Shown here: positions 1 through 53,419 of the stretch, piece by piece
Layout: every line of letters begins with the position of its first letter
Numbering within the stretch: the stretch's first letter is position 1
Origin: Octopus vulgaris
Lineage: Eukaryota
Assembly (NCBI GenBank): GCA_951406725.2
Contig: OX597815.1
Coordinates: 201,748,001-201,812,000 of the forward strand
Length of the DNA stretch: 64,000 nucleotides
Reading direction: 5' to 3'
Translations under genes and position numbers: made by a program
Notes under the pieces: generated by a model
Database searches by the model: none
Seen by the model: the letters and a program-made list of their open reading frames with translations, nothing else
What the model was told of the DNA's origin: nothing

Positions 1-2560
1 CAGGACAATCAGAGAAACACAGTTCTATGTCCACCAACCCCTAACTACAGAAATATACCTACAGGTGAGGAGGGGAAGAGAGAACCTGAAAAGAGAAGTG
101 CACAATTAATTCAGGACAGAAAACTATCATATCTTGCAATCCACAATTTGATGCACAGACTCCAGGGAGACTATATCCTACAATCAAATATATGGCAATA
201 ACTTTTGGCAAAACCAACAAAATGATGAATATCTAAATATGCAGGAACCTTAACTACCACATTTTAAGAAACACCAAGGATACAATAATTACAGATTATT
301 GTAATCCTAAAACCATTTTTTAAGCATAGACCAGAAACACGAGGAAAGAAGCTACATTCCAAACAAGAGAAATAAAAATGATCAATTTTTTACGACTAAT
401 ATATTTATAAACAAATATACTTTGAAAGTGACTACATTTCACACAACCACCTCTAAAATCAAATAAATGAAAATTAAATTAAATTGAATCGAAAATCATA
501 TTAAAGATAACGTTGCAGAAAACTGCAGAAAACTAAGATTAGCAGAACTGTTTTTGATGTAAGTGGTGAAGATGAAAATATAAGTAAAAGCAAAACATAT
601 CTCTATGCTGGACGAGGACGAAATACAACTCTTGACTAATTTTGTGTGTATATTTGAAACTTCCCTATAATAGAACGGGAAACAACAAATCAAGTCTCTT
701 TCCAATAGACAATAATTGACCAACTTAACAGATTTACAATTGGACAAAAAATAACAATAAAAGAAGCTGATAAAGAGGTCGGTTGTTGTTATGGCTACAG
801 ATTACAACAAGAAATCAATATATGATAGTAGTGACAATGAAAATCACGTAAGTACAAAACTACGAAATCTATGAACTACTTAGCATCCTACTCCATATAT
901 GCTAAAGAACTGGACTACCTTACAAACTTCAAATATAAAGCAAACAAATTCTATGGACTACCTAAAATACATGAAAATGAATTAATAAATGAACATATGT
1001 ATGAGCAAACAACCAGTTTCGTGAATATCCCAGCACTATCAGATCTTCAGTTGAGCCTCATTGTAGAAACCCATCGTTTTAACCCCAACCCCGTAAGTAT
1101 TATACTAGACAATCTGATAAAACCCCTCCTCAAACATATAAAGAGCATTCTACTATATAATTTGAACATTCTCAACCTCGACCTAACACAATAAACGAAA
1201 TCGCCTATATAGTCACATTATAGTCACCTTTGATGTTCTGAATCTACTTACCAGCATTCCTCGCAATTAGGGAAATAAAGTTATAGAATATTGGTTAAGC
1301 GCATTTCTACATGTAATACCAGAACGCAGGGAGAGATAAATTATTGATGTTTCAGTTGTTATCATAGGTAAAATTTACTATAAGTATTTGATATTGGATA
1401 TGTTACGTGATAATGGCTAAAATTACTAAAAGAATTTAATCTTGCATATGGCACGTGAAAGTATTTACAATGAATTCATATTCAATAACACAGCTTATCG
1501 ATAAAATTCAAAAACGGCCATGGCAAAACAGCCATGGTAAAAATGTTGCCCACACGTATGCCAACTCGTCATGGTATATCATGAAATAAAAATCTATGAA
1601 ATATCCATCGTAATTTTTCGAGTAGAGTTATGTTTTTAGAAATAAAAAGAAAATTAGAAGAGGTTTCTAGATGGTTGTTTAATTTAATGGCTGTAAATTC
1701 CTAACTTATATCGTCACATTCAATTCATCTTAGAAATCAGTAACGATAAACAGTCAGCCTTAGACATTCTAATAATAAAAGACATTTTTACTCGAAATCC
1801 TCTTTTGTTTATAACTACCGAATCATGACAATACCTCTTCTTGATCTCATGTAAGGCAAACCACACAAGAAGTAACAACCAAATCAGTTTAACCAATAGC
1901 TGGAATAAGAAAACATAGTAAAAATGGAGTGAAAAAATACCTATCTCAGGAAAATACCTAATTGAGCTGGGTGAGTTTGTTATTCAGGAAACAAAGCATA
2001 TTAATATTGAAAACCTTCGAAATATGGGACCCACAAAAAATAAATACTATCCCAAATATTCCTAAGTTTAACTTAAGAAAAGCCTATTTGTTTATCAACA
2101 TAAATCGCAAACTATCAATTTTACTACAAGAAAAATTAGAAAAGTTGTTGAAGAGCATGCAATTTTGGAAAAGCAAGAGGCAGATAAATCCCTAAAGAGC
2201 CACGATATATTCTCAAAAATATGCTCCTAAGGTAAGTAAATGTAACAGACCAAACTGTAGAGAATGTAGCTACTAACTACTGCAATTCGGAAACCTAATC
2301 TATATTATAACGTGAACGATGCCGAGACTACCACATCGGACAAACGGATATAGCAGTAACAAAATGAATGACGGTACACCGACAACAAACCAACGAATGA
2401 TTCACAAGATAAAATATCCCTCAATGAATATATAAATAAGTGTGATAGGTCTAATCCAAATATCTTGTCTTTTCTTTCTACCAGTTCAGTGACGGAACAG
2501 CCAAGAAGGAATAAAGAAATTTAATTTATTAACAGGTACAAACTAAAACTCAACAGAGTA
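1..2560 (+). mobile_element. Degenerate Penelope-like retroelement (RT + GIY-YIG), with frameshifts and stops
   Basis: PLE RT motifs occur in the expected order: ITIKEADK (~750), FYGLPKIH (ORF 871-1194), VTFDVLNLLTSIP (~1222), TAM(G)/TYAN (~1515-1570), RFLDGC for RY(I)DD (~1662) and LDILI (~1760). They are followed by the Cys linker KCNRPNCREC (~2238), NLIYII (~2293) and a terminal FINRYKLKLN (~2525). The 5' boundary is uncertain. Confidence 0.85.
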
Positions 2561-17336: not shown

Positions 17337-18034
17337 TTAATGTTCAACTGCATAGTGCTTTATTTGTGATAACTTCAATTCCACACTATTTATATTAAAA
17401 GGCTTACTCTTTCGAAATCCATTTCCAATTTTTATATATTGCTCCATTGTATTTTGGGATTTTTAAAGCATCGGTTACATGTAAATATGGTTTGTTTTAC
17501 GGTGGCGGCCTTACAAACAAGTTTCTTAGTTTCTTCTTTTTCTTTGGTTGCAAATCTTATTTGCTGGTTGTGTATGGTACATTGATTTGAAACTTTCTTA
17601 CTCAAATATTCGCGGTCCTCAGTTGATTTTATTTGTTATATGATCTTTCTTTCGTTTTGGTTTAGTTCATGCATGTTATATAGAATCTGTCAATATCTAA
17701 TAATGTATTTTATTGTCACTTAAATTAATTTTCTCAAGTTGGTTACTTTGTTAGCTTTGATTCGGGGATCGTAGTTAGAACAAATTAACGTAACATAGCA
17801 TTGGAATCAACCTAACAAAATTATAAATGTAGACAAAAAAAGAGAGAAACTGGAATGTGTATGAAATAATCAATAAACCGAAAAGTAAGATATAACACCC
17901 GAAGAGCCCCCTGGCATGAAACTTGACATTAGAAATGTTTCAGCCTACATAATATAATACGGGTAAAAAGAACTGGTGTTCTCATCTGCAAACTAACTGG
18001 AACATATGCGTGTGCGCTAAAATATGTACTGACG

Positions 18035-18088
<54 letters not shown>

Positions 18089-18109
18089 TGCTTTTATTTG
18101 TATTGCTTT

Positions 18110-18390
18110 TACGACCTGTTCTTGTCACATTTTTTTCTTTCCTTGCTTTTACCCCTCTACAAAGGAATGTTATTTAATTCATTTGCAGGAAGGACTAGTT
18201 CGACGGGTTGTGTTCTGTCCTTACCTTCGAAACACGCATTGAGTCGAACCAGGGACAACTGATGAAGGGTTATATTCCTTGTATTGTTTGTCTTGTACTC
18301 TGTTTTTTCGTTGTTAAAAAAGTCCGTTTCCGAGTTTGTTTTTATGTTTTCGTTTCTCGTTGAGTTCGTTCATTTGTGGTGTCCTGTACT

Positions 18391-18395
<5 letters not shown>
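18110..18395 (+). repeat. Dispersed repeat related to 52820-53065 (probable PLE terminal repeat), flanked by (TA)n
   Basis: It shares ggaaggact..gttg(t/c)gt..tgtcctt..ggg(a)caactga(t/c)gaagg..tgtcctgtac with the 52820-53065 copy. Confidence 0.65.
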
Positions 18396-18443
<48 letters not shown>

Positions 18444-18878
18444 GCTTTACTGACTATACTTGTATACGACACACTCATTTCAATGGGCTACCATAAAACG
18501 CAATAAAATTATATAACATATATCTCCTCTCGAGAGAGAGAGAAAGAGAGACAGAGAGACAGAGACATATGTATCTGTGCGCTTGTTTGTGTGTGCATCT
18601 GTGTGTATGTGCGTGTTTGAGAGTGTGCGTTTTGTGCCATTGTGTATCTACGTGGGTTTATAAATATTTATTTCTGTATATGCTTATCTACATGGATCAA
18701 AATAGACTTTTGTATGTTCACAAATGTATTTGTGTATACAGAATTACTGTTTACGTGATTAGGTATAATATCAATGCATGCATAGATAAATATAACGTGG
18801 TGTGTCTCTGTATATTTATGCTTTATACGTATGTGTTCGTGCACGGGTGTATATGAGTGCTTGTGTACACACACACAC

Positions 18879-18921
<43 letters not shown>

Positions 18922-19715
18922 AATAGCTTAATTTTACAGAAAAAAATGAAGACAGGTGTATAAACAACAACCAGGTGTATTAGTTTGACACTGGGGAAGG
19001 TAAGGAAGTATTTTGCATTTCGAGCCCACGCTCTTCAATAAAAAGGAGTAAGAGAAAATAAACAGAGAGATAATTAAAAAAACAAACTTGTGTATTGGAT
19101 TTAGCGATCGATCATAGCGACTGTTTGGGAAAACAAATGTTTGACAAGAGAGGTAGAAATTAAGGGAGCTAATAAAGTATTAATGCCCCCAAAACGATGA
19201 CGCGCGCGCGTGTATGTATGTATGTGAGAATATGCAAGTGTGTATGTGTGGAGTGTCGCTAGTGACTTTGACGTATGTAGATGTGTGCATGTATAAGTGT
19301 GTGCCTATGTAAAATGTGTGGTGTGTGCGGAGTTAGGGTGGGGATGGAGGGCGTATGGATGAAGAGTGAAGGTGGGTATGAGGGAAGATAGAGGAAGATG
19401 TCAGAAGAAGAGAGGAGAGGAGAGGTGGGTAGGAGTGAAGAGGGGAAGTAGTGTCTGAGGAAGAGTGGAAGGTGAAGAGAGGAGAGTTTAGCTCATAGGG
19501 CGCAAAGAAGAGAAGAGATATTAATTCTTGTTCATGGTAAGGGCGCGAGTCTGGATGGCCCCTCTGCTAAGACAATGCGAACACAGGTGTTGTAGTGAAT
19601 GTCCGGTAGAGTGGAATTGCACGAGATCGGGGTCTCATTGCCGAGTCTGATGTCTTGGATGTGCAATGTGATCCGGTCGGCCAAGCGGCGTCCCATTTGA
19701 CCGATGTACATGTGT
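18922..19715 (-). mobile_element. 3' end of a Penelope-like element: GIY-YIG C-terminus followed by a terminal repeat with a degenerate hammerhead
   Basis: Minus strand 19712-19490 reads MYIGQMGRRLADRITLHIQDIRLGNETPIS..FHSTGHSLQHL..HEQELISF..LRPYELN. The downstream repeat matches 35897-36085 and 33923-34110. Confidence 0.85.
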
Positions 19716-20257
19716 ATGTGAATCTTTTTCCTGTGTGTGTATATCTCTTTGTGTGTTTGTGTGTTTGTTCATGTGTGTTTGTGTGTATGTGTGTGTGTAT
19801 GTATCTATAAGGTAGAAAATGAATCAATTTAAAAGTACAAATAGAATGTATAAGCATGTTTATCTATATTCACATTCAGGCAATTTATTTTTATATCTTT
19901 AAGGTTTACAAGTGTAAGCTTTGTAAAGTGACATGGCGCAATAAAATCTATGACATTTCTAGTCGTAGCTGAAAAATTTATCCCTTTTATCATAGAGAGT
20001 ATGTGGCTTTCATCTCCATCATATGATGTACTTGTTGATTGGTTGATGATGATCATGTGGTGAGTAGAGGAGAATGTGTTCAGTTCTATCCAACGACCAT
20101 GTCCGAGGCTATACGGCAGCCGAACGAGAGCTTTATGTCGAAGTCTTAGTTTAATAGAACTTTTAGTCTAATAGATTCTCGTTGACGCCCAAAGTCTCCT
20201 CGGAGATATTGTTGCGGAAGAGTGAGTCTGACAAAAGATACCCATATCTGCTCACTG

Positions 20258-24434: not shown

Positions 24435-24827
24435 CTTACTACGTTCTTTGGGTAGTAACTTGTTAGTGATGTTAAACTGATTGTATTCATCTTAATCGTT
24501 AACAACTACGCATGTTGAGCTATACTTCCATTCTTCTGATTTGCAGAAACTTATTTTTCATCCTTATAACAACATAACTTACGTTTTGGATAATACCGAA
24601 GCTCCTAACAATGTGTTGGATTTCATTACATATATATTATATACAACCCCAGCTGTTTGCGTTTTGCAATGTCCTCAAAATTCACTTAGAAGTTAAAAGG
24701 CTAAGGTGTCGATTCTTATTATTAAAATATTTAACCGACAGCTTTTGAAAAGGAAAAAGAACCAAAAGTTTGGTCTAGCATTGATATCTACGAATATCAC
24801 TAGTACATGTATTGCCATAAAGATTAC

Positions 24828-28286
<3,459 letters not shown>

Positions 28287-28376
28287 ATATAAATATATAT
28301 ATATTTAAATATATATATATATATACATATATATGTATATCTATCTATCTATCAATCTCTCTCTCTCTCTCTCTCT

Positions 28377-28416
<40 letters not shown>

Positions 28417-28426
28417 GTGTGTGTGT

Positions 28427-28720
28427 GGAGGCCCAATGGCCCAGTGATTAGGGCAGCGGCTAGTGGTCGTAGGATCACGGTTTCGATTCCCAGACTGGGC
28501 GTTGTTAGTGTTTATTGAGCGAAAACACCTAAAAGCTTCACGGCGCTCCGGCAGGGGGTGATGATCTCTGCTGTACACTTTCATCACTCTTTCTCCCACT
28601 CTTTCTTCTGTTGGCCTGCTTGCTTAGCTAGTGGGTTGGCGTCGTTCAAAGCCTAAAACAATGCGAAGGCATTGAGACCAGCGATGCGTAACATCTGATG
28701 GTCTGGTCGATCACGTGATA
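28427..28720 (+). mobile_element. tRNA-derived SINE
   Basis: It has ggaggcccaatggcccagtgattagg (A box) and ggtttcgattcc (B box). Its body is shared with 7374-7852 and 55785-56082. Confidence 0.85.
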
Positions 28721-29244
28721 ATATATATCTATATATACATATATATATATCACACGCACGCCTATACATGCAGAAATGCACATATAGAGGCGCATACCTA
28801 CGCCAACACAGACACACTCGTATGCAACCATGCACTCAGACACATCTTAACTTTATTTTATCTTCAACCAACCAGAACGTGTAAAAATACAAATGAGAAG
28901 CAGCAGCTTACAGACTGCTATATTGAATGCATAAACAAATATATATAAAAGCCAAGCATATATTTTTTTCCTCTGAAGGGATTGTGCCCAGGTCATATGA
29001 ATTTAATATTCAGTTAATTCACTGAGTATTAACTGAAACAGAAGTATGGGTTGATGATTGATTTTTGTTAATATTAAACAACTATTAATTACCCAAACTT
29101 CATTTTCTTTTTCTTCCTTCAAACGAGTATGAAATATTCTTTAGTATATATACTTTTTTTAATGAAAGTAATTCCCCCAAAATATTAAGTATTAAACCAG
29201 TATTTCCTTGGATGAGCCCATCCCTTCATGAGGCTAACACAACC

Positions 29245-29303
<59 letters not shown>

Positions 29304-29304
29304 A

Positions 29305-29458
29305 GACGGGCTTCTTTCAGTTTCCGTCTATCAAATCCACTCACAAGGCATTGGTCGGCCCGAGGCTACAGTAGAAGACACTTGCCCTAGGTGCCACGCA
29401 GTGGGCTGAACCCGGAACCATGTGGTTGGTAAACAAACTACTTACCACACAGCCACTC
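29305..29458 (-). mobile_element. tRNA-derived SINE with a CORE-like central motif
   Basis: Reverse-complement match to 45097-45251. Confidence 0.85.
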
Positions 29459-29471
29459 ATATATAGGTATG

Positions 29472-29527
<56 letters not shown>

Positions 29528-29528
29528 G

Positions 29529-29581
<53 letters not shown>

Positions 29582-29582
29582 G

Positions 29583-29704
<122 letters not shown>

Positions 29705-32700
29705 TACGTATGCGTAATTAATACTACTGATTGTATTACTTAATTTACAACGATAAAAAAGCAGAAAAGAGTATGAAACTATACGTAAAGCTCAAAGGTA
29801 ACAGTGGCAGTCGAGTATCTATTTGTAGACACAGTTTCTACTATAGATTTAAATCAGCAATTTCATTAAATTGCTGAAAACAGTTTGCACCCAATACATG
29901 GATCATCGACCTCGTACTAGGAAACACAGGACTATAACATGTGTGTAATAATATATATAATGTTACGTTCGAATGCCCCATTAAATACATACATATGGCA
30001 TATATTCGCACATCCACACTCATACTTACACCCATACTCACTCCATGCACTCCATTATTTCTCTGTATATTTACATATGTACATATGTGTATCTTTCTAT
30101 CTATCTATTTAGTTATCTTTCTCTCTGTATATATATATATATATGCGTGTGTGTGTGTGTGTATACACACACACATATCCATCTCTCTCTCACTCGATAT
30201 ATACGCGTCTTTGTGCGCGCGTGTGTATGTGTGTGTGTGTGTGCGCGCTTGTGTGCGTGCGTAAATACTTGTAAGCATGTATGTTTGTTTCTGAAATACA
30301 TTTCTAATTCACGTAGTAATTCGTAACGAAATACTAGAAGTGGGTTGCACATACATGTAAATTACTAATTTCTTTGAAATATATACCTGCGAAGAGGAAA
30401 TAATTTCAATCCCAAAGAGTAATTACTATCACCACATGTGAAAGGGGCTACTAATTTGGAAATAATTTATATTATCGCGAGGATAAATTTAATGTTGATT
30501 GAAGAATTTATTCAGTATGATATTTGTATTCTGAACACATAATACCTGTGCATTTGCAATACATTTGTCGATCACCTCATTAACGCTTCTCTACTAAACA
30601 ATATTCTAGTGTGTGCGTGGAAAATGTTCGCTTGAAATATTGCATTTTACACATCATATAACCTCTCGTAAAATACCCATATGCCCAAATACACAGATAT
30701 GATTACTTGTGAATGTTCACACTTCGCGACAATTGATGATAATGAATTATTTTGTGAACTCTCCCATGGTTTAATTGTTATCGAGGAAGATTATCACCAG
30801 TGTCACTGGATTAAAAAATTAATCAATAATGTGAATTGGAATTGTAACAAGCTTCGTGTTTCACACTGTCAAGAACAGATATTTAAATATCTAGACTAAA
30901 ATACGTAAAATTCATGTGAAGCTAACGTTATTGTTACAACAGTGGAATGTATGATGAGAAGTGATATCAGGATCTAGTCAATTCTTGGGCTTATTATTTT
31001 TTGCTCAAATTTAGCAATGGCCATTCTGGCATATACGTACAGGCAGATATTGAAGGCGAGCACACTAGTTTCGCAAAAATAGGATTTAATTTCGGTCATA
31101 TTATAAAATACATTACGAACTTGTTCTCTACTCAACCTAGGACGTGACTAATGCTTCTTCCCGCACAATTCAGTTATGGAAGCTATACTGAATACTGTTC
31201 AAAGTGTCAATCTTGTTCTTGGGGGTGCAGAATCCGTCATCTTGCTTATCACTACCAAGTGACTCAGGATTATTTTTGCGGAGTTTGCATTGCTACAAGT
31301 CAAGAAACTCACGAAAAGTTTCATGAATGCCACTCCGTTTCCTTTGACTAAAACGTTAGTAAACGCATACATGAAAATAGAGTCATACTAGTCCAATCTG
31401 TACTGCATAATCATAATATACTATCTGAAATTCATGGAATATGTAATGTCAAAGCATCTTAATTGAACTATTATTGCTCGGATTTGGTCAAAATTTTCAT
31501 AAATCAGAACGAAGTATTACAAAAGTCAATCTTGCTTGAAATTTACTCTTTGATCATCTGAGTTTGCGGTTGTAAGCTACCAACATATTGAAAGTTGTTT
31601 CCGTGCGCGACACATTCACTTTAAGCCAATCTCCAAAAATAATTAATATCTAAGGCATCAAATAGAAACATTCAGTAAAATGTTCGTCGAAATTTTATGA
31701 TAAACTCCATTTTCGTATAGGAAAACCTTGCCAATACGAATAACAGTATTTGCACTGGATATTAAGATAGCTAGTTACACGATTTGGCTAGGTCTTAATT
31801 GTATTATTTCATCTAAAAGACTTGAAACTGAAAATGTCCTTCTTTAGGGGATTGATTAACACATTCCGAACTTACACAAATGCCAGTAGTTTTTCAACTT
31901 GGCGCGAGAGCAAAATCGTTCATTTCTGAAAATTAAACTCATGGTGGTCTGAGTCAGTGACCAACATCTAATTTAAATCTTACATTAGAATTACTTTATA
32001 TCACATATTAATAGTATTAGGAATGATAGAAATGCAATAAGCATAAATTTTTATCTTCGATAGAGTATTCGTCAGTTGTGCATATTTTCATTGCGTTATT
32101 ACTATTGTAAAACTTTGGATAATGCGTGTTGTCACAGTTCGTGCATAATTTAAGAGAAAGCAAGCTTTTACAAATCAACACATTTATGTTACTGGTTCGT
32201 GTTGAGATGTAAAATGTATTTCTTCTATCACATTATCTATTTTTGAATCTCGTACAATCACCCCGTCCAGAATAAAATCATAAAATTAATATTTTAATCG
32301 CAGAATATTTTCCTATAAAACATTCAAAAGTTAATATGTATCTCTAACATTAGACATTGTATCATACAAAACCACGCATTTATTAATGTATGTAATGATG
32401 CCAAAATTAATTTTGAGTTACAACGTTATAAACTGCGCATAGTTAAAAACTTTCTGGTTCATCTGACTTGGTCCAACATTCACTGGATATCAAATATTTT
32501 TTTCTTTTTCTTTTGCATGCAAGTTCTGTGTTATCCTGCTGAAGACCTTAAAAACTTAGAACATATTTAAGCATCTGTATATATATTTCAGCAAACGAGA
32601 ATATCAATATATTTCCTGCTTTCATTTACGGTCAATAATGACACATAAAACACCAGATGTGACTTTTAATAATATTTTATGGTTTTCTAAAAATTAGATT

Positions 32701-33178
32701 GCATTTCTCAGTCATAAGAAGTTTGTTTAGATTTATGCGATAATAATTAAACAAGCTTTCGTACAGTTACCCCAAGGACATATTCTTACGGACGTTTTCT
32801 CATATGGGACATGTGTACATCAATGATATAGAGGAAATATGCAAAATAAAAATTATATTTCGTTCACACACTAATTATTAAAAAACTGTACAGTATTATG
32901 TCTTCCTCAGTTAGCACTGTGAAACAGGCATTACACATTTTTAGTTTTATTGATAATGTTGTTTTTGTTACTTTGAAATATCTATCACGACTGTTGGTTA
33001 TCTCAAGATCCTTACTATTGGTGGAAATAAACCGAGGGCATTTCCTTTATGATCACCGCGTTTCATACTTTAAATGATATTTAAAATTATCTTATATTAT
33101 ATGCAGGTGGAGTACAAACAAGGCAGGTGCAGTACAAACAAACAAATGTATTAGTATAGCGCTCAGGAATAGAACAGG

Positions 33179-33216
33179 TCTTTTACGTTTCGAGCCTACG
33201 CTCTTCGACAGAAAGA
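33179..33216 (-). ncRNA. Minimal type-I hammerhead ribozyme motif (A6U variant)
   Basis: The motif is UCUUU-CUGUCGA-A-GAGC-GUAG-GCUC-GAAAC-GUA^-AAAGA. It has a 5-bp stem I, a 4-bp stem II and a palindromic ACGU stem III. Confidence 0.75.
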
Positions 33217-33859
33217 TACACAGAAAAAAAACAAGGAGAGAAACAAGGAGAGAAAAACATATGTTATATGGTATGTTCCAGTAATCGATATTTGATGGAG
33301 ATTTAGCTGCTCTATGTAGAAAATCCAACGGTATTTTCATGCTTAGGCAATTTATGTGTTTTCAGAATGTTGTTCCTTTTTGAATCCCTAGTGAGCATAG
33401 GTAGATTTTGTGCAATAGTTTTGTATGCCTCATTGTTTCTAGGGTTATGGGTTGGTATATACGGTAGCATTTTAAAATGAGTTGTGGTGTTACATTTGGT
33501 TTCTCTTAGTGTTTTAATGTCTAATTTCTTGGCACGCTTAATTCTATCATCTATAAATTAGGGGGATATCGTTCCTCAGTTAGTGCTGTTCTGAGGCCTT
33601 AAAGACAGAGGTCTCGAGTATTGCCATCAGACACAATTGTGCAATTCATTTTCGCTAAATTAAAGGGGATATTTCTTTGGATGTGTTTCAGGTAGCATGA
33701 TTTAAATAGATGTTATTGCTTCGAGTCCGTTGGCTTATGATACATGCCACTTACAATGTGGTTGTTGAATCTTTTTTATCGTAATATCTAAGAAAAGGAG
33801 CTGTTCTTTTCTATATTCCATTCTAAATTGATTGTTAGAGTTTATATTATTTAGTTCTA

Positions 33860-33927
<68 letters not shown>

Positions 33928-34015
33928 GGAAAGTTTACGAAAATAAACAAAAGACGAAGGCAGGTGGAGTACAAACAAACAAACGTATTAGTATAGCGCT
34001 CAGGAATAGAAAAAG

Positions 34016-34053
34016 TCTTTTACGTTTCGAGCCTATGCTCTGCGACAGAAAGA
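34016..34053 (-). ncRNA. Second copy of the hammerhead motif (A6U, A9C)
   Basis: UCUUU-CUGUCGC-A-GAGC-AUAG-GCUC-GAAAC-GUA^-AAAGA. Confidence 0.6.
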
Positions 34054-35480
34054 TACACAGAAAAAAAACGAGGAGAGAAAAATGCGTGTAGTAGCTAACG
34101 ATCTATCATGGTATCCTGTATATATTTATACATCAGTTTGTACAAGCAAGGAGTAATTTGGTAAAACCGAAAGTATAATGGTTGCATGTATGCCATAATT
34201 TCTGAAATGCATGCTATCAAACGCGTACTGGCAAACATATACTTCCATATTTATACGCAATATAGTTGCAACATAAAGCTGAAACATTGATGAGCATAAT
34301 AAACTATGCGTATGTATGCAGCTTGTGCTAATGTCTGTAAATATCTGTTGGTTTTATGCTTACAAATGTATATCGGTTTTGATTTTTCTGTATGTGAACT
34401 TGTATTTTACAAACTCACTTTACGTCTTATATGTCAATAGATAGGACTTCGGTATATAGCAAAATATTAGAATAGTGTTTTTCAATTACAAAAGTGATGT
34501 AAATATGTGGAGTTGTATTGGTTGTGGACAAATGTTTGAAGTTGTTTGAAAAAATAAGTATAATTCATATTTATAAAGCACAGTTGAAGTAGTGATTAAT
34601 ATATAATAAAGAAATCGAAGTGGTTGATAGCAGGGATAAAGACTGAAAATAGATCAGAGATAGTGACATAGAACGACAACCTCTTAAGTGAAATTGAGCT
34701 AGAGTCTGTGAGACATATATAGAATATGTTCGAGGCAATAATCAAGTAATGCAATATTATCATTTAGCATTATGGTGTGAGAAACCATTCCAAAAGGTGT
34801 GACAAACCATTATTTTCTTGAACAATAATTGAAACAACTTCGAGGAAAAATAATTTCGCAAAAATAGTATTCACTATAGAATCAGCTTCAGGCTATGAAT
34901 TGCAAGCTTGTTGTTAGATGTATGGTACAGTGACAATATTAAAGCGTGAACTTAAATTTAGATTGTTAGTTGACACAGTAATCTAAGTTAATTCAGCAGC
35001 TATTTCGGTTGAAGTGCCTAGTTGTGTAAGGGGTGGCTCATGCATTTTACCAATGTTTATATGACAGCATTTCCTGGTTTGACTGCAGCCAGTGTCATCT
35101 CACCTCATGTTCTCAGACACAATATTTTATTGCATGACTGTACATCACCAGTTCTATTAATTCATATCAAGACTTAAATTTAACAAATATACTTTTAGAA
35201 ATAATCTTTGCCTTATAATATTCAGCTTTTATTTTAGTAGGAAAATACTCCTTCTAAACTAGAAATATTACAGGTATTAGAATAATATGTTTAAAATTTG
35301 AAGAACAAAATTCTGCCGTCCAGGAGTTCGGGAAAATGTTGATTCTATTCTGTCATGCATTTGTGAATGTCTGTTATTTCTGAAGCGTATATGGCAATTA
35401 TATTTGAGGTAGGATCAATTAGTTTTTATCGGTTCAAGTGGCCAAACAATCGCATACAAGTAGAATATGCACAGATACCA

Positions 35481-35526
<46 letters not shown>

Positions 35527-35896
35527 CATAAGAATACTTACATATACGAACGTATACATACATATGTATGCACGTATGCACGCGACCAGTTTAAATTGCT
35601 CGCCTATAATTCCTAGTGCGATATGGTCAAAACATCACCGCAGTAAATACAATGACGAAATAAATATAAACATTTATGTAAATACGTATAAGGATAGGAA
35701 AGGATGGGGCCATTCTCATACCCATCGCAGTCCCAGCTTTTTATCGTTATAAGTTGTGTTTGAAGACGAAGAAGTTATTCTCCAAGAGGAATTTTAGAGC
35801 TTCTATTGCGAATTTTGTTTTGGTGCTGTGTGGAAGTTCATTGGTATAATACTCTAGCCAGAGAATACACCACGCACGCGCAGACACACATACATA

Positions 35897-36085
35897 TAGT
35901 TAAAATTTACAGAAAAACAAAAGAAAACAAGTGTATGAACAACATGCGCGTGTATTAGTTTGACGTTCGTGAAAGTGAGAAAGATTTTACGTTTCGAGCC
36001 TACGCCCTTCAGCAGAAAGGATTAAGAGAATACAGAAAGAGAGGGAGAATAAAAAGCAACTTGTGGATCTAGCGATTTAGCGATA
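35897..36085 (-). mobile_element. Solo PLE terminal repeat with a hammerhead motif (35983-36020, A6C)
   Basis: The motif is CCUUU-CUGCUGA-A-GGGC-GUAG-GCUC-GAAAC-GUA-AAAUC. The flanks align with 18922-19110. Confidence 0.7.
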
Positions 36086-36835
36086 TATGTAAAACGTGGG
36101 CGATGAGAATGAGAAATCTGACAATTTTCAATAATATATTCGGAATATTCGGAGTTATATTTTGGAACAAAATCTCAGCTGTCCTGTTTACATTTCTGTG
36201 AACGTACAAGATTCTGCATTTCTATTTATCTGCTAACATTGAATATAATAGTTTGACATTTCAAGCACAAATCAGTGAACTGTTATCAACGATATAAATT
36301 CAAAATATCGATGCATGCAAATATATGAATATATATATGCTCATTCCAGACAGTTTATCCTGGGTTTTAAACACATAAACATATTAGATGGTGTGAAAGA
36401 TCATCAGGAACCATAGAATTAAAGTTTAACGAATACAATTCAATTGCGTAAAACGAAATTGACTCCGCTTGCTAAAGATTTTGAAGTGATTGCACTGTGT
36501 AAGGTTTATTTGCGTAATCTATCTAACTTAGGACACTGAAACATCATTTCACTTAATGGTTATTTATATATAAATAAGAATGTGATAACAAACCTGTGGC
36601 AACGAATGCCAAATGTAATAAAATATTAAAAGTTTTGGGTAAATATTTTTCACCTGCGAAATTTATCACAGTAATATTAACGTTTGGACATTTTTCCCGT
36701 AAAGCTTTCTTCTTGGCATGACTATGTACTTACGTATTTATGTTATGTACAACGACGATTACGATATGAAAATTTTTCGGAAAAGAATAAAAAGGATATA
36801 TCCATGTACCTAGCAGATCCCACTACACCTCTGTC

Positions 36836-36907
<72 letters not shown>

Positions 36908-36935
36908 ACTATCTATCTATCTATCTATCTATCTG
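36836..36935. repeat. (TATC)n microsatellite
   Basis: Direct tetranucleotide repeat. Confidence 0.95.
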
Positions 36936-36947
36936 TCTGTCTAACTG

Positions 36948-36998
<51 letters not shown>

Positions 36999-38149
36999 AT
37001 TTACCTATCTGTATACTTATCTATCATTTTACCTATATATCTATCCATCTATCTTGCTATCTACCGATTCTTTTGTCTATCTGTGTACTTAACTATAGAA
37101 CAACCTCTCTATCTATCTGTCTACCTACACATCTATCTATCTACCTATCTATCCAGCTAGCCAGCCAGCCATCTATCCAGTCACTTGCCCATCCGTCCGT
37201 CCATATTTAACAATTTACTATGTCTACTCTTGTGAGGTCATTCTAATAGCAAATTGACCAAACACAGTAAATATTTTCCATCAACATATTGGATTGCATT
37301 TCATTTTCTTTCCTGCGTGCCCTTGAATGTTTCATGGCTGTGATTTCTATTTACCCCCATAATTAATCGCTTTGGTTTAATTAGTAAATATCTCTGTCCC
37401 AAGTTCGGGCGAATTTCCGTCGCCTGACTACAAGTATAGACGCATGAAGAAAGTTCAGGAGATGGATTTAGGCAAATGTAGTATCGGCTTTGAATGGACA
37501 CCAGAGAACCCTTTCGTTTTCTGCTGAATAGGGGCGTGGTTCCCTTGGAGAAAGCACTGAGCAAAAACTTATCGAATAATATCTTATAATATTACTTTAT
37601 TTTTCTTCACACCTCATAATTATTATATCTTGTGGTAAACTATATCAGCAGCCATACATTAAATGCACTTTAAAAAATGCTTTTCTCACACAATAATATC
37701 ATGTTTTCTTTCAAGTACTTTCCACTTTCACACAATTATTTCCCTCTATTTTGATTAGTTTTTGCTCGTATGTGTGCATTTCTACGTCTCCTTTCTTTTT
37801 CCTTAAATTTGATGCTTATATTCACTTCATCTTTCATTTTTTTCGTTTGTATATTTTTAAATGTTTTCACTGGACACATAAAATTGTGTTAACCAAAAGT
37901 GTCTATGTTGATAAATGTGTGAATATTAATATTTATAATTTTCGGAAATGTCAAAAAATGAATGATGATGTTTGTTTTGCGGTAACTTACTAATCATTCT
38001 TCCTAAGTATGATACCGCATTTTGGTACAGTATATATATTAATGCTATGCCAAAAAATATAGTATTAAATCCCTAATTACTTTTGTCGAGTTATCCTTAT
38101 TTGTAACATTAATTATTATGTCTCGCGCTCGAGACATATCTTCGCAATA

Positions 38150-39350
38150 ACCACCTTGTCCAAGCAAGATATAACCATTACAACAACCCCATTCAGAGAT
38201 GATCGCAATTGATAGCCCACAATAGACCATGGGTCAGCGGAAGGACACTCAACAGGAACAATAATTTCTCATATCAAATCACAAGAAGCCATTTTTTAGG
38301 CGAACTCGGCCAAAACTGGGACATTCTGTGGAACCAACCAAATGTGAGATCCCGAAAGTGATAAATTTCTCACAAACCAACAAATCAAAATTCTCGCAGG
38401 GGACTGAGGTTCACCCCAACACCACAAAGATCGAACCTAAAGGATATATAAAATGATATCTAGGAGTTCTGCGGAAAACTTCAAATCACTGAAGAATTTT
38501 GTTGCATAAAGAAAATAATGATCACTCTATATTTCACAATAACAGTAACTACTGACGGACAAACAGAAGAAATCAAACTCTGGATAACTTTTGTGATTTG
38601 GTTTCCACTTATCCCTACAATTTACTCCCAACTCGAAAATTTAAAGCAAATACAAGTCGAGAGGAATGGGAAATCATTAATAATCTCACTATAATTATAA
38701 AAGAATCCGATAAAGGGAGTGCTATAGTAATCATGTTCTCAGAAAAAATTCATAAACACTACCCTCTTCCTCCTTCAAGACAATGACTACTATGAAAATA
38801 TCAACAACGGCAGTGAATCCCAGATAACGAATAAACTTTCTATCTTCATCCACCAGTTCCAAACAGATTTAACAGAAAAGGAGAGAGATTACTAGACGAC
38901 ATTTGACTGCAAACCAGCAGAATTTATGGACTTCTTAAAATCCACAACTGTGAAGACATAAACGAAGCCAGTAACAAATCAACTTCTGTAGTCAGAAATA
39001 TTCCACACCCGACAAGATCTCAAAATGAGACCGATTGTGGCCGGTCCCTCCTGTGAGACAAACAGACACAGTAGCTTTATTTACGACCGCCTTAAACCTG
39101 TTCTGCAACATATACCGAGCTTTATAAATGATTATCTGAACTTTTTAAACAATCTTCCGAAAAGCACCCAGTAAGGACCCACTTCTCGTTTCATTCCATG
39201 TAATAAACTTCTACACCTCGGGTCCTCACGAATACAGAATAATAGCTATACGATATTGGCTAGAAACATTCCCAAATGACATTCCTGACCGAATCGGAAT
39301 AGAATTCATCGTTGAAGAAATAAAATCCATCCTACAGATCTACTTCTTGA
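38150..39350 (+). mobile_element. Degenerate Penelope-like element, N-terminal and RT part (related to 1-2560)
   Basis: Motifs in order are GLRFTPTP (~38400), IIIKESDKGSAIVIM (~38691), FYGLLKIHN (~38925), KMRPIVAGPSCETNR (~39022) and [13 protein letters not shown] (~39182). Confidence 0.85.
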
Positions 39351-39450
39351 ATGTCAACAAGATTTTGAAATTCAGGGTCGTGTTCAAAACAAATTTTCCT
39401 ATGTGTATATATACATACATACATACATACATATATATGTGTGTGCGTGC

Positions 39451-39504
<54 letters not shown>

Positions 39505-39516
39505 CAGGCACACACA

Positions 39517-39552
<36 letters not shown>

Positions 39553-39599
39553 TATATATATATATATATATGAATATATATGTGTATACTATATATATG

Positions 39600-39634
<35 letters not shown>

Positions 39635-39910
39635 GTATATATATATATTTGGATGCATACATACATGCCTGCATATATATAGTTATATGCGATTATATAT
39701 GTTTATATTGTTTATATTTATATAAATGTGTATGTGTTTGTATGTATGTATGTTTACATGTATTAGAGCCTGTATAATCACATATACATATATACACCCA
39801 CATATATACATACACACAAATACAAATACTCTTACACGCACACACAAGCACACATGTGCATACATGCAGTCATTACACCCATACATACATACAAACTTAT
39901 ATATATATGT

Positions 39911-39948
<38 letters not shown>

Positions 39949-40357
39949 GTGTGTGTGTGTGTGTGTGTGCGTGTATGTATATATATCAAATTCAGCTGAA
40001 GTATTCACTATTGCTGAGGATCTGAACATATTGCACATCTCTGTTTCTGCTTTTAATCGGTACAAAATAACGTTTGATTCTTAGAAAATAATGAAAAAAA
40101 ATGTTTCATATTGGTATGACTTTAAGATACAAAGTTTCCCAATATTACAATTCATCGGGAAACAAACAAAAGGGAATACATTTCTCTCTCTCTTCCTCTC
40201 TCACTTTGTCCTCTCTGCTTCTGTGTTTCTGTTTCTCTCTCTTTCTCTCTCTTTCTCTATCTCTCTCTATAACTCCCTTTCGCTCTATACACACAAACAC
40301 ACAGAAACACGCTGCACACAAAACCTAAATACAAACAAATATATATAGCTTCAACAA

Positions 40358-53135: not shown

Positions 53136-53145
53136 ATAAATAGAT

Positions 53146-53349
53146 GATAGATCGTTAGCTCCTACACGAATTTTTTTCTCTCCTTGTTTCTCTCCTTGTT
53201 TTTTTCTCTGTATCTTTCTGTCGAAGAGCGTAGGCTCGAGACGTAAAATACTTTTTTCTATTTCTATTCCTAAGCGCTATACTAATACATTTGTTTGTTT
53301 GTACTCCACCTGCCTTCGTCTTATGTTTATTTTCGTAAACCTTCCCGTT

Positions 53350-53350
<1 letters not shown>
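53146..53350 (+). mobile_element. Solo PLE terminal repeat with a hammerhead motif (53213-53250; GAAA mutated to GAGA)
   Basis: Near-identical reverse complement of 33923-34110. The motif is UCUUU-CUGUCGA-A-GAGC-GUAG-GCUC-GAGAC-GUA-AAAUA. Confidence 0.8.

Positions 53351-53419
<69 letters not shown>

Follow-up and report, generated by a model that had tools for sequence, protein, structure and literature searches.

Two hammerhead motifs in the Octopus vulgaris genome lie in tails of an abundant Penelope-like element and are likely accidental neighbours

The window analysed here is the whole stretch of 64,000 nucleotides of Octopus vulgaris DNA. Two hammerhead motifs are located on its minus strand, with predicted cuts after 34021 and after 33184, that is, with a spacing of 837 nt. 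A first-pass annotation had described this pair, together with a (TA)n tract and a Penelope reverse transcriptase (RT) fragment between the motifs, and had interpreted the whole as a retrozyme-like unit. The motif pair could be read from the sequence just as it had been written, with the same distance between the cut sites, and the interior was found to consist of a (TA)31 microsatellite and a broken RT and thumb region of a Penelope-like element (PLE), besides a short spacer. The following features were distinguished, A and B being the two PLE families characterized below.

33926 to 34118, minus strand: copy 1, a 5'-truncated 3' tail (pLTR) of family A in which the 3' end of the family is complete (...TTCCCT, then TA); its 5' boundary is approximate, near the common truncation point CAGGA(C/T)(G/A)CCATG
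34016 to 34053, minus strand: minimal type-I hammerhead motif 1, with U6 (the family norm) and A9C at 34042
33863 to 33924, no strand assigned: (TA)31 microsatellite, a tract such as family A elements usually have as target or tail
33349 to 33862, minus strand: broken family B RT end and thumb, ending before the Cys linker and the GIY-YIG domain
33261 to 33348, no strand assigned: 88-nt spacer, with no non-self match among the scored candidates
33120 to 33260, minus strand: copy 2, a family A tail fragment, 5'-truncated and, at its 3' end, ~30 nt short of the family terminus
33179 to 33216, minus strand: minimal type-I hammerhead motif 2, with U6, C7 and A9, in the same layout as motif 1
33103 to 33119, minus strand: ~17-nt local duplication, read from the sequence, which replaces the normal 3' end of copy 2

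The extent of copy 2 was taken from the alignment and from the family A matches of the spacer-plus-flank search, which cover positions 81-221 of the query. Both motifs sit in a direct repeat of 124 nt with 94% identity (94.4%). Each has a 5-bp stem I, a 4-bp stem II starting with G10.1-C11.1 and an extra nucleotide (A) after position 9. In motif 1, stem I is made up of 34053-34049 and 34020-34016, the core occupies 34048-34042 and the extra A is at 34041; these are followed by stem II (34040-34029), GAAA (34028-34025) and C-G-U-A (34024-34021). The palindromic ACGU at 15.1-16.1 is present in both copies and is predicted to form no stable stem III, the calculated self-duplex being worth -1.7 kcal/mol. 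The earlier assignment of the motifs to the minimal type-I PLE hammerheads, with a loop-less palindromic ACGU as stem III, matches the layout presented by Cervera and de la Pena (2014). In an Rfam scan of 28000-40000 at E<=5 no hammerhead family was returned, only microsatellite-driven miRNA and snoRNA noise.

Other mobile element remnants were also observed in the window. Three further family-A-type tails are located at 53144-53352 (plus strand), 36057-35952 (minus) and 19711-18881 (minus); one of the three has a changed GAAA, one is older and has C6, and one is older with a GIY-YIG remnant upstream. Two more decayed PLE RT fragments were seen at 39028-39289 and 1658-1876 (both plus), and an open frame at 24697-28077 (plus), with 1,126 codons counted from stop to stop, resembles the ORF2 of a LINE, intact and with motifs of endonuclease and RT.

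The abundance of the motifs was determined in the genome of 2.8 Gb (227 contigs). The exact 38-mer of motif 2, the commonest among those searched, gave 1,643 genomic matches as compared to none for the reversed control, thus the motif did not arise by chance. A 29-nt family A pattern gave 19,815 genome-wide matches with at most one mismatch, and 17,801 exact matches when positions 6, 7, 9 and one loop base were left free. Judged from their sequence, both motifs are the 3' tails of a very abundant Neptune-type Penelope-like retroelement with approx. 18,000-20,000 motif copies. TA runs also follow other family A copies: in 29 of the 29 other loci fetched with copy 1, the fixed 3' end was succeeded by a TA-type microsatellite, and the 5' truncation was variable. 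In many of these tails (L002-L030) the 5' ends fall close together, a few bases at most from a common point ~65-75 nt upstream of the core, and this truncation hot spot differs from the predicted ribozyme cut site.

Longer family A copies extend upstream, first across a pyrimidine-rich UTR and then into a GIY-YIG domain, and the hammerhead repeat was found ~700-800 nt downstream in 10 of the 11 further loci chosen by that domain. The family A ORFs (L074-L079, L084) contain RT, thumb, a CX4CxxC linker and, C-terminally, the GIY-YIG; the RT was recognized by Pfam RVT_1 (E=3e-8), and the GIY-YIG domain was read from the sequence without a Pfam hit. At one locus (L090, G000:C2:77211500-77220000) a full-length partial tandem is preserved, consisting of a tail, a 5' leader, an RT-CX4CxxC-GIY-YIG ORF and a second tail. 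Its hammerhead tails are ~4.3 kb apart and the open ORF, counted from the first ATG, has ~970 codons. A second locus ~37 kb away (L079) nearly duplicates the 3' part of L090. By its layout, family A would be placed among the Neptune/Nematis elements.

One property of the cores was absent from the first-pass annotation: position 6 is U in both copies and not the canonical A. Both copies thus depart from the core consensus CUGANGA...GAAA...UH at U6, and copy 1 departs from it at A9C as well. The family A core is CUGUNGA, with U6 in ~96% of the matches, a free N7 and A9 in 99%. In the alignment, U6 was present in 66 and A9 in 63 of the 67 other family A copies. Matches with A9 and a base other than U at position 6 numbered 674 against 17,801 (~4%); base 6 was C in 74 and A in 17 of the first 100 of these listed. 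Since matches without A9 numbered only 175 against 17,801 (~1%), the A9C of copy 1 is most simply, and probably, a rare change that occurred by mutation after the insertion. Position 7 is the free position of hammerheads. Among the first 100 matches listed it was U in 42, A in 25, C in 21 and G in 12 cases, a variation far above the mutation background, which suggests that the master lineages changed N7 and kept the rest. From this one site (N7) we infer selection on the fold in active family A elements, cleavage itself being only predicted.

All 56 rows of Fig. S3 of Cervera and de la Pena (2014, PMC4209133) have A6, and the consensus is CUGANGAH. An A6U hammerhead of PLEs was not found in the literature searched; since Lunse, Weinberg and Breaker (RNA Biol 14:1499) may describe such variants, A6U is not claimed here as unpublished. 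It is conceivable, though rather doubtful, that CUGUNGA is a working natural variant which is missed by CUGANGA searches and was selected as a slow, dimer-only ribozyme, and that chance pairs of it act as accidental read-through cutters. Such cutting, to which we give the same low credence, would involve dozens of same-strand pairs per genome, and at this locus the intact downstream core would cut at 34021.

The RT fragment (33862-33349) is broken by stops and frameshifts. Its identification as a Penelope RT was confirmed, both RT and thumb being of the PLE type, but it belongs to a different PLE family from that of the hammerheads. At the DNA level it matched none of 12 family A loci (best blastn E 0.21), tblastx gave no match at 0.01, and the family A protein was ~24-36% identical to the family B loci over the longer alignments. 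Among the best 40 of 802 candidates, the best non-self match of the fragment was 85% identical and the range was 79-85%; these matches all end at or before ~33349. Among the rows listed, the family B kin run on into their own CX4CxxC linker and GIY-YIG domain, and the missing 3' part of the B element was not found elsewhere in the window. The median identity of the fragment to its kin was 82.4%, as against 84.8% among the kin themselves. The tails were ~93-94% identical to family A, which indicates that the B fragment is the more decayed component.

A family A tail adjoined the RT match in none of the 29 fetched family B loci. At one of them (L058) an older family-A-like tail, oriented like the RT match, is located ~0.9 kb upstream of it; this may reflect shared targeting of TA tracts, still, such neighbours recur. 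A different hammerhead-like motif was recognized by fuzzy matching (at most 7 edits) in the own 3' UTR of 18 of the 29 family B loci, and this motif is absent from the window. It reads UGUC-AUGAUUA-GC GAAA GC-GAAA-CCGG-UC-GACA (L032-L060 3' UTRs, e.g. L054); A3 and U8 replace the C3-G8 core pair, stem II has 2 bp, stem III is the palindromic ACCGGU, and position 7 is U or A. The pattern had 56 exact matches genome-wide. The A3-U8 swap was not among the published variants compared, which did include U3-A8.

The annotation had considered that an arrangement unique in the genome would point to two independent insertions. In a genome DNA search no second copy of the 837-nt arrangement, that is, of the proposed ~840-bp unit, was found among the best 40 candidates scored. 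When the 88-nt spacer was used as query, only its tail end matched apart from the self match (best 40 of 50 candidates). With the spacer plus flank again only the tail matched, and the downstream flank was without a non-self match among the best 40 scored. A mobilised unit would give fragment and spacer matches at tail-like identity; none were seen among the candidates scored. The absence of a second copy appears strong from these searches, which are non-exhaustive, the best 40 being scored in each. The proposed retrozyme-like unit was not borne out in its composition either: its RT fragment originates from another PLE family with kin at no more than 85%, its spacer and flank lack non-self matches among the scored candidates, and unlike in a genuine PLE partial tandem (cf. 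L090) the interior is not the 5' leader and ORF of the family that supplied the pLTRs.

The two tails differ at 7 of 124 positions and by a 12-nt indel that is polymorphic in family A. The variants which separate them are common in the family, namely the 12-nt duplication, the base at position 33984 (G in 16 copies, A in 51) and a TG variant (9 of 67), thus the tails point to different master elements. Twenty-seven of the 66 other copies were closer to copy 1 than copy 2 is, and 19 of the 66 were closer to copy 2. These counts are inflated, since the comparison copies had been picked for their resemblance either to copy 1 (L002-L030) or to the 5' end of copy 2 (L062-L070). A uniform model with 17,801-19,815 copies predicts that 47-59 same-strand pairs no more than 837 nt apart occur by chance genome-wide, so the pairing of two copies is within chance.

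Other close same-strand pairs were also inspected. The B fragment was present in none of the 7 that were fetched, and unrelated DNA lies between the hammerheads of L071, L085 and (by BLAST) L088 and L089. The 815-nt pair of similar spacing, L085, was rejected as a counterpart, its interior being unrelated. On contig C1, two pairs with spacings of 3.2 kb and 1.07 kb were rejected as full-length elements; one was explained by two separate insertions and the other by local duplication. At L086 (G000:C1:101523743-101524205, minus strand) a 434-nt unit was observed which consists of a hammerhead tail, a 5'-leader-like stretch and a second tail, with no ORF; this is a better retrozyme-like candidate than the pair in the window. 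In L071 (oriented ~1615-2000 and ~2305-2690) a family A tail stands between two direct copies of a ~390-nt host sequence, and TA runs delimit each copy; for a duplication resembling a target-site duplication this length is unusual.

Around the whole unit in the window, the search for a target-site duplication gave only 6-7-nt AT-rich words. In the contigs of four sequencing runs, and then of one run at higher stringency, no piece spanned the stretch or gave information on an empty site. The 'skips' of ~820-860 nt seen in run contigs were rejected as evidence, since they are best read as other family copies that fit both repeats.

With the structure and the copy numbers of family A and the separate origin of the RT fragment established, we consider it highly probable that the locus is composed of two family A tail fragments around an unrelated family B RT fragment, brought together by separate insertions, and is not one mobile unit. 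Because no empty site was seen, we infer the order of the insertions. The family B element would have been the first to enter, at a (TA)n tract, and its 3' part would have been lost afterwards. Target-primed reverse transcription would then have added copy 1 in that TA tract. Copy 2 would have inserted ~90 nt beyond the B fragment, with loss of the 3' end of this copy. The hammerhead of the parent element may act as a dimer between the two pLTRs of the ~4.3-kb partial tandem, and the U6 core leads us to predict slow cleavage at best. For the in-cis dimer at this locus, 34021 would be the only possible cut, as 33184 is served by the A9C core.

A one-step chimera, in which the reverse transcriptase of family A changed templates and deposited tail 2, spacer, B fragment and tail 1 in a single event, would account for all parts being on one strand. 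PLEs are described as forming complex tandem and inverted insertions (Craig et al. 2021, PMC8557442), and head-to-tail truncated copies exist at some family A loci, as at L087, where two of them were found. We nevertheless regard this origin as very unlikely. Tail 1 has a complete 3' end with a (TA)31 behind it, which marks an insertion that was primed separately, the two tails carry different family-level variants, and no target-site duplication was found. Moreover, the B fragment is as diverged from its kin (82.4%) as the kin are mutually (84.8%), at a distance not seen in the tails (~93-94%).

In the retrozyme-like interpretation, a read-through transcript would fold into an in-cis double hammerhead and free an 837-nt linear or circular RNA, which may re-insert. 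The motifs do have the same orientation, and a nested double hammerhead could be drawn in which all stem I, stem II and shared ACGU pairs are predicted to form. However, compared with the free ensemble of the 999-nt RNA this fold is less favourable by 18.6 kcal/mol, a value for secondary structure only which ignores tertiary contacts and proteins. In the modelled dimer, A15.1 of core 1 is paired with U16.1 of copy 2, therefore core 1 (A9C) would serve 33184 and core 2 would serve 34021. The A9C change reported by the annotation is indeed present at 34042, but the damage had been assigned to the upstream ribozyme, yet in the dimer the upstream core serves the downstream cut. Since the A9C core serves 33184, freeing of the 837 nt would depend on the damaged core, and the model makes monomer release from the in-cis dimer unlikely. 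In favour of the interpretation, dimeric constructs of minimal hammerheads (min-HHRs) cleave weakly in vitro, at a low but real level (PMC4209133), and metazoan retrozymes have been described as PLE derivatives (bioRxiv 10.64898/2026.07.22.740005). Against it, no second copy was found among the scored candidates, the interior is a fragment of an unrelated family with a microsatellite, A9C is present in one core and U6 in both, and the metazoan retrozymes described in PMC7229834 are of a different build, as detailed below. The probability of a retrozyme-like unit is thus considered very small.

A local tandem duplication of one tail, for which L072 with its identical tails and common flank offers a precedent, is largely refuted and has a very small probability, as no flank is duplicated at the locus, the tails differ at the positions and by the polymorphic indel given above, and private mutations common to both tails were not apparent in the alignment.

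The locus holds real motifs of a known kind of element, which are likely accidental neighbours and not a retrozyme. It is ordinary repeat debris, and at ~18,000-20,000 motif copies tandem hammerheads are insufficient for calling a retrozyme. Family A reached its copy number with U at the position where all 56 published representative PLE motifs compared have A. If A6U cleaves, the hammerhead consensus widens and published counts miss whole families. Otherwise, cleavage would be dispensable for spread, which fits the report on an anole PLE, where hammerhead mutants still insert in vitro (PMC11167929); in the same report no RNA-seq ends were found at the cut site.

The motifs in the window have the same architecture as the min-HHRs of metazoan PLE pLTRs (PMC4209133), for example in the Acropora digitifera Neptune row, and the GUA cut triplet occurs in the Xenopus tropicalis (2) row of the same set. 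Their site agrees as well, the motif being situated in the pLTR of an RT-EN PLE in 10 of the 11 GIY-YIG loci and at both ends of L090. The difference is at position 6, which is A in 56 of the 56 rows of Fig. S3 and U in ~96% of the family A matches. The metazoan non-LTR retrozymes (Cervera and de la Pena 2020, PMC7229834; Li, Clavereau and Pollet 2026) have in common with the window two same-strand type-I hammerheads within 1 kb and a relationship to PLEs. However, they are described in PMC7229834 as multi-copy 150-450-bp tandem repeats with canonical hammerheads, for which circular RNAs were shown, the monomers being non-coding, whereas the window unit is 837 nt long, contains an RT fragment and (TA)31, has no second copy among the scored candidates, and is a mosaic of unrelated parts with minimal, mutated cores (U6, one A9C). 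An altered position 6 is shared with the hammerhead of phage Bcep176, a natural A6C variant with a k_obs of <0.1 per minute (Perreault et al. 2011, PMC3088659); that is a single ribozyme with a measured rate, whereas family A has A6U across ~17,000 matches and is a putative ribozyme known from sequence. In overall organization there is a likeness to the EN+ PLEs of the Neptune/Nematis type (PMC8557442), which share with family A the RT, the CX4CxxC linker, the C-terminal GIY-YIG, the partial tandem pLTRs, the microsatellite targets and the pLTR hammerhead. The linker is present in families A and B both, while the window itself holds only dead fragments of these two families, with ~24-36% protein identity.
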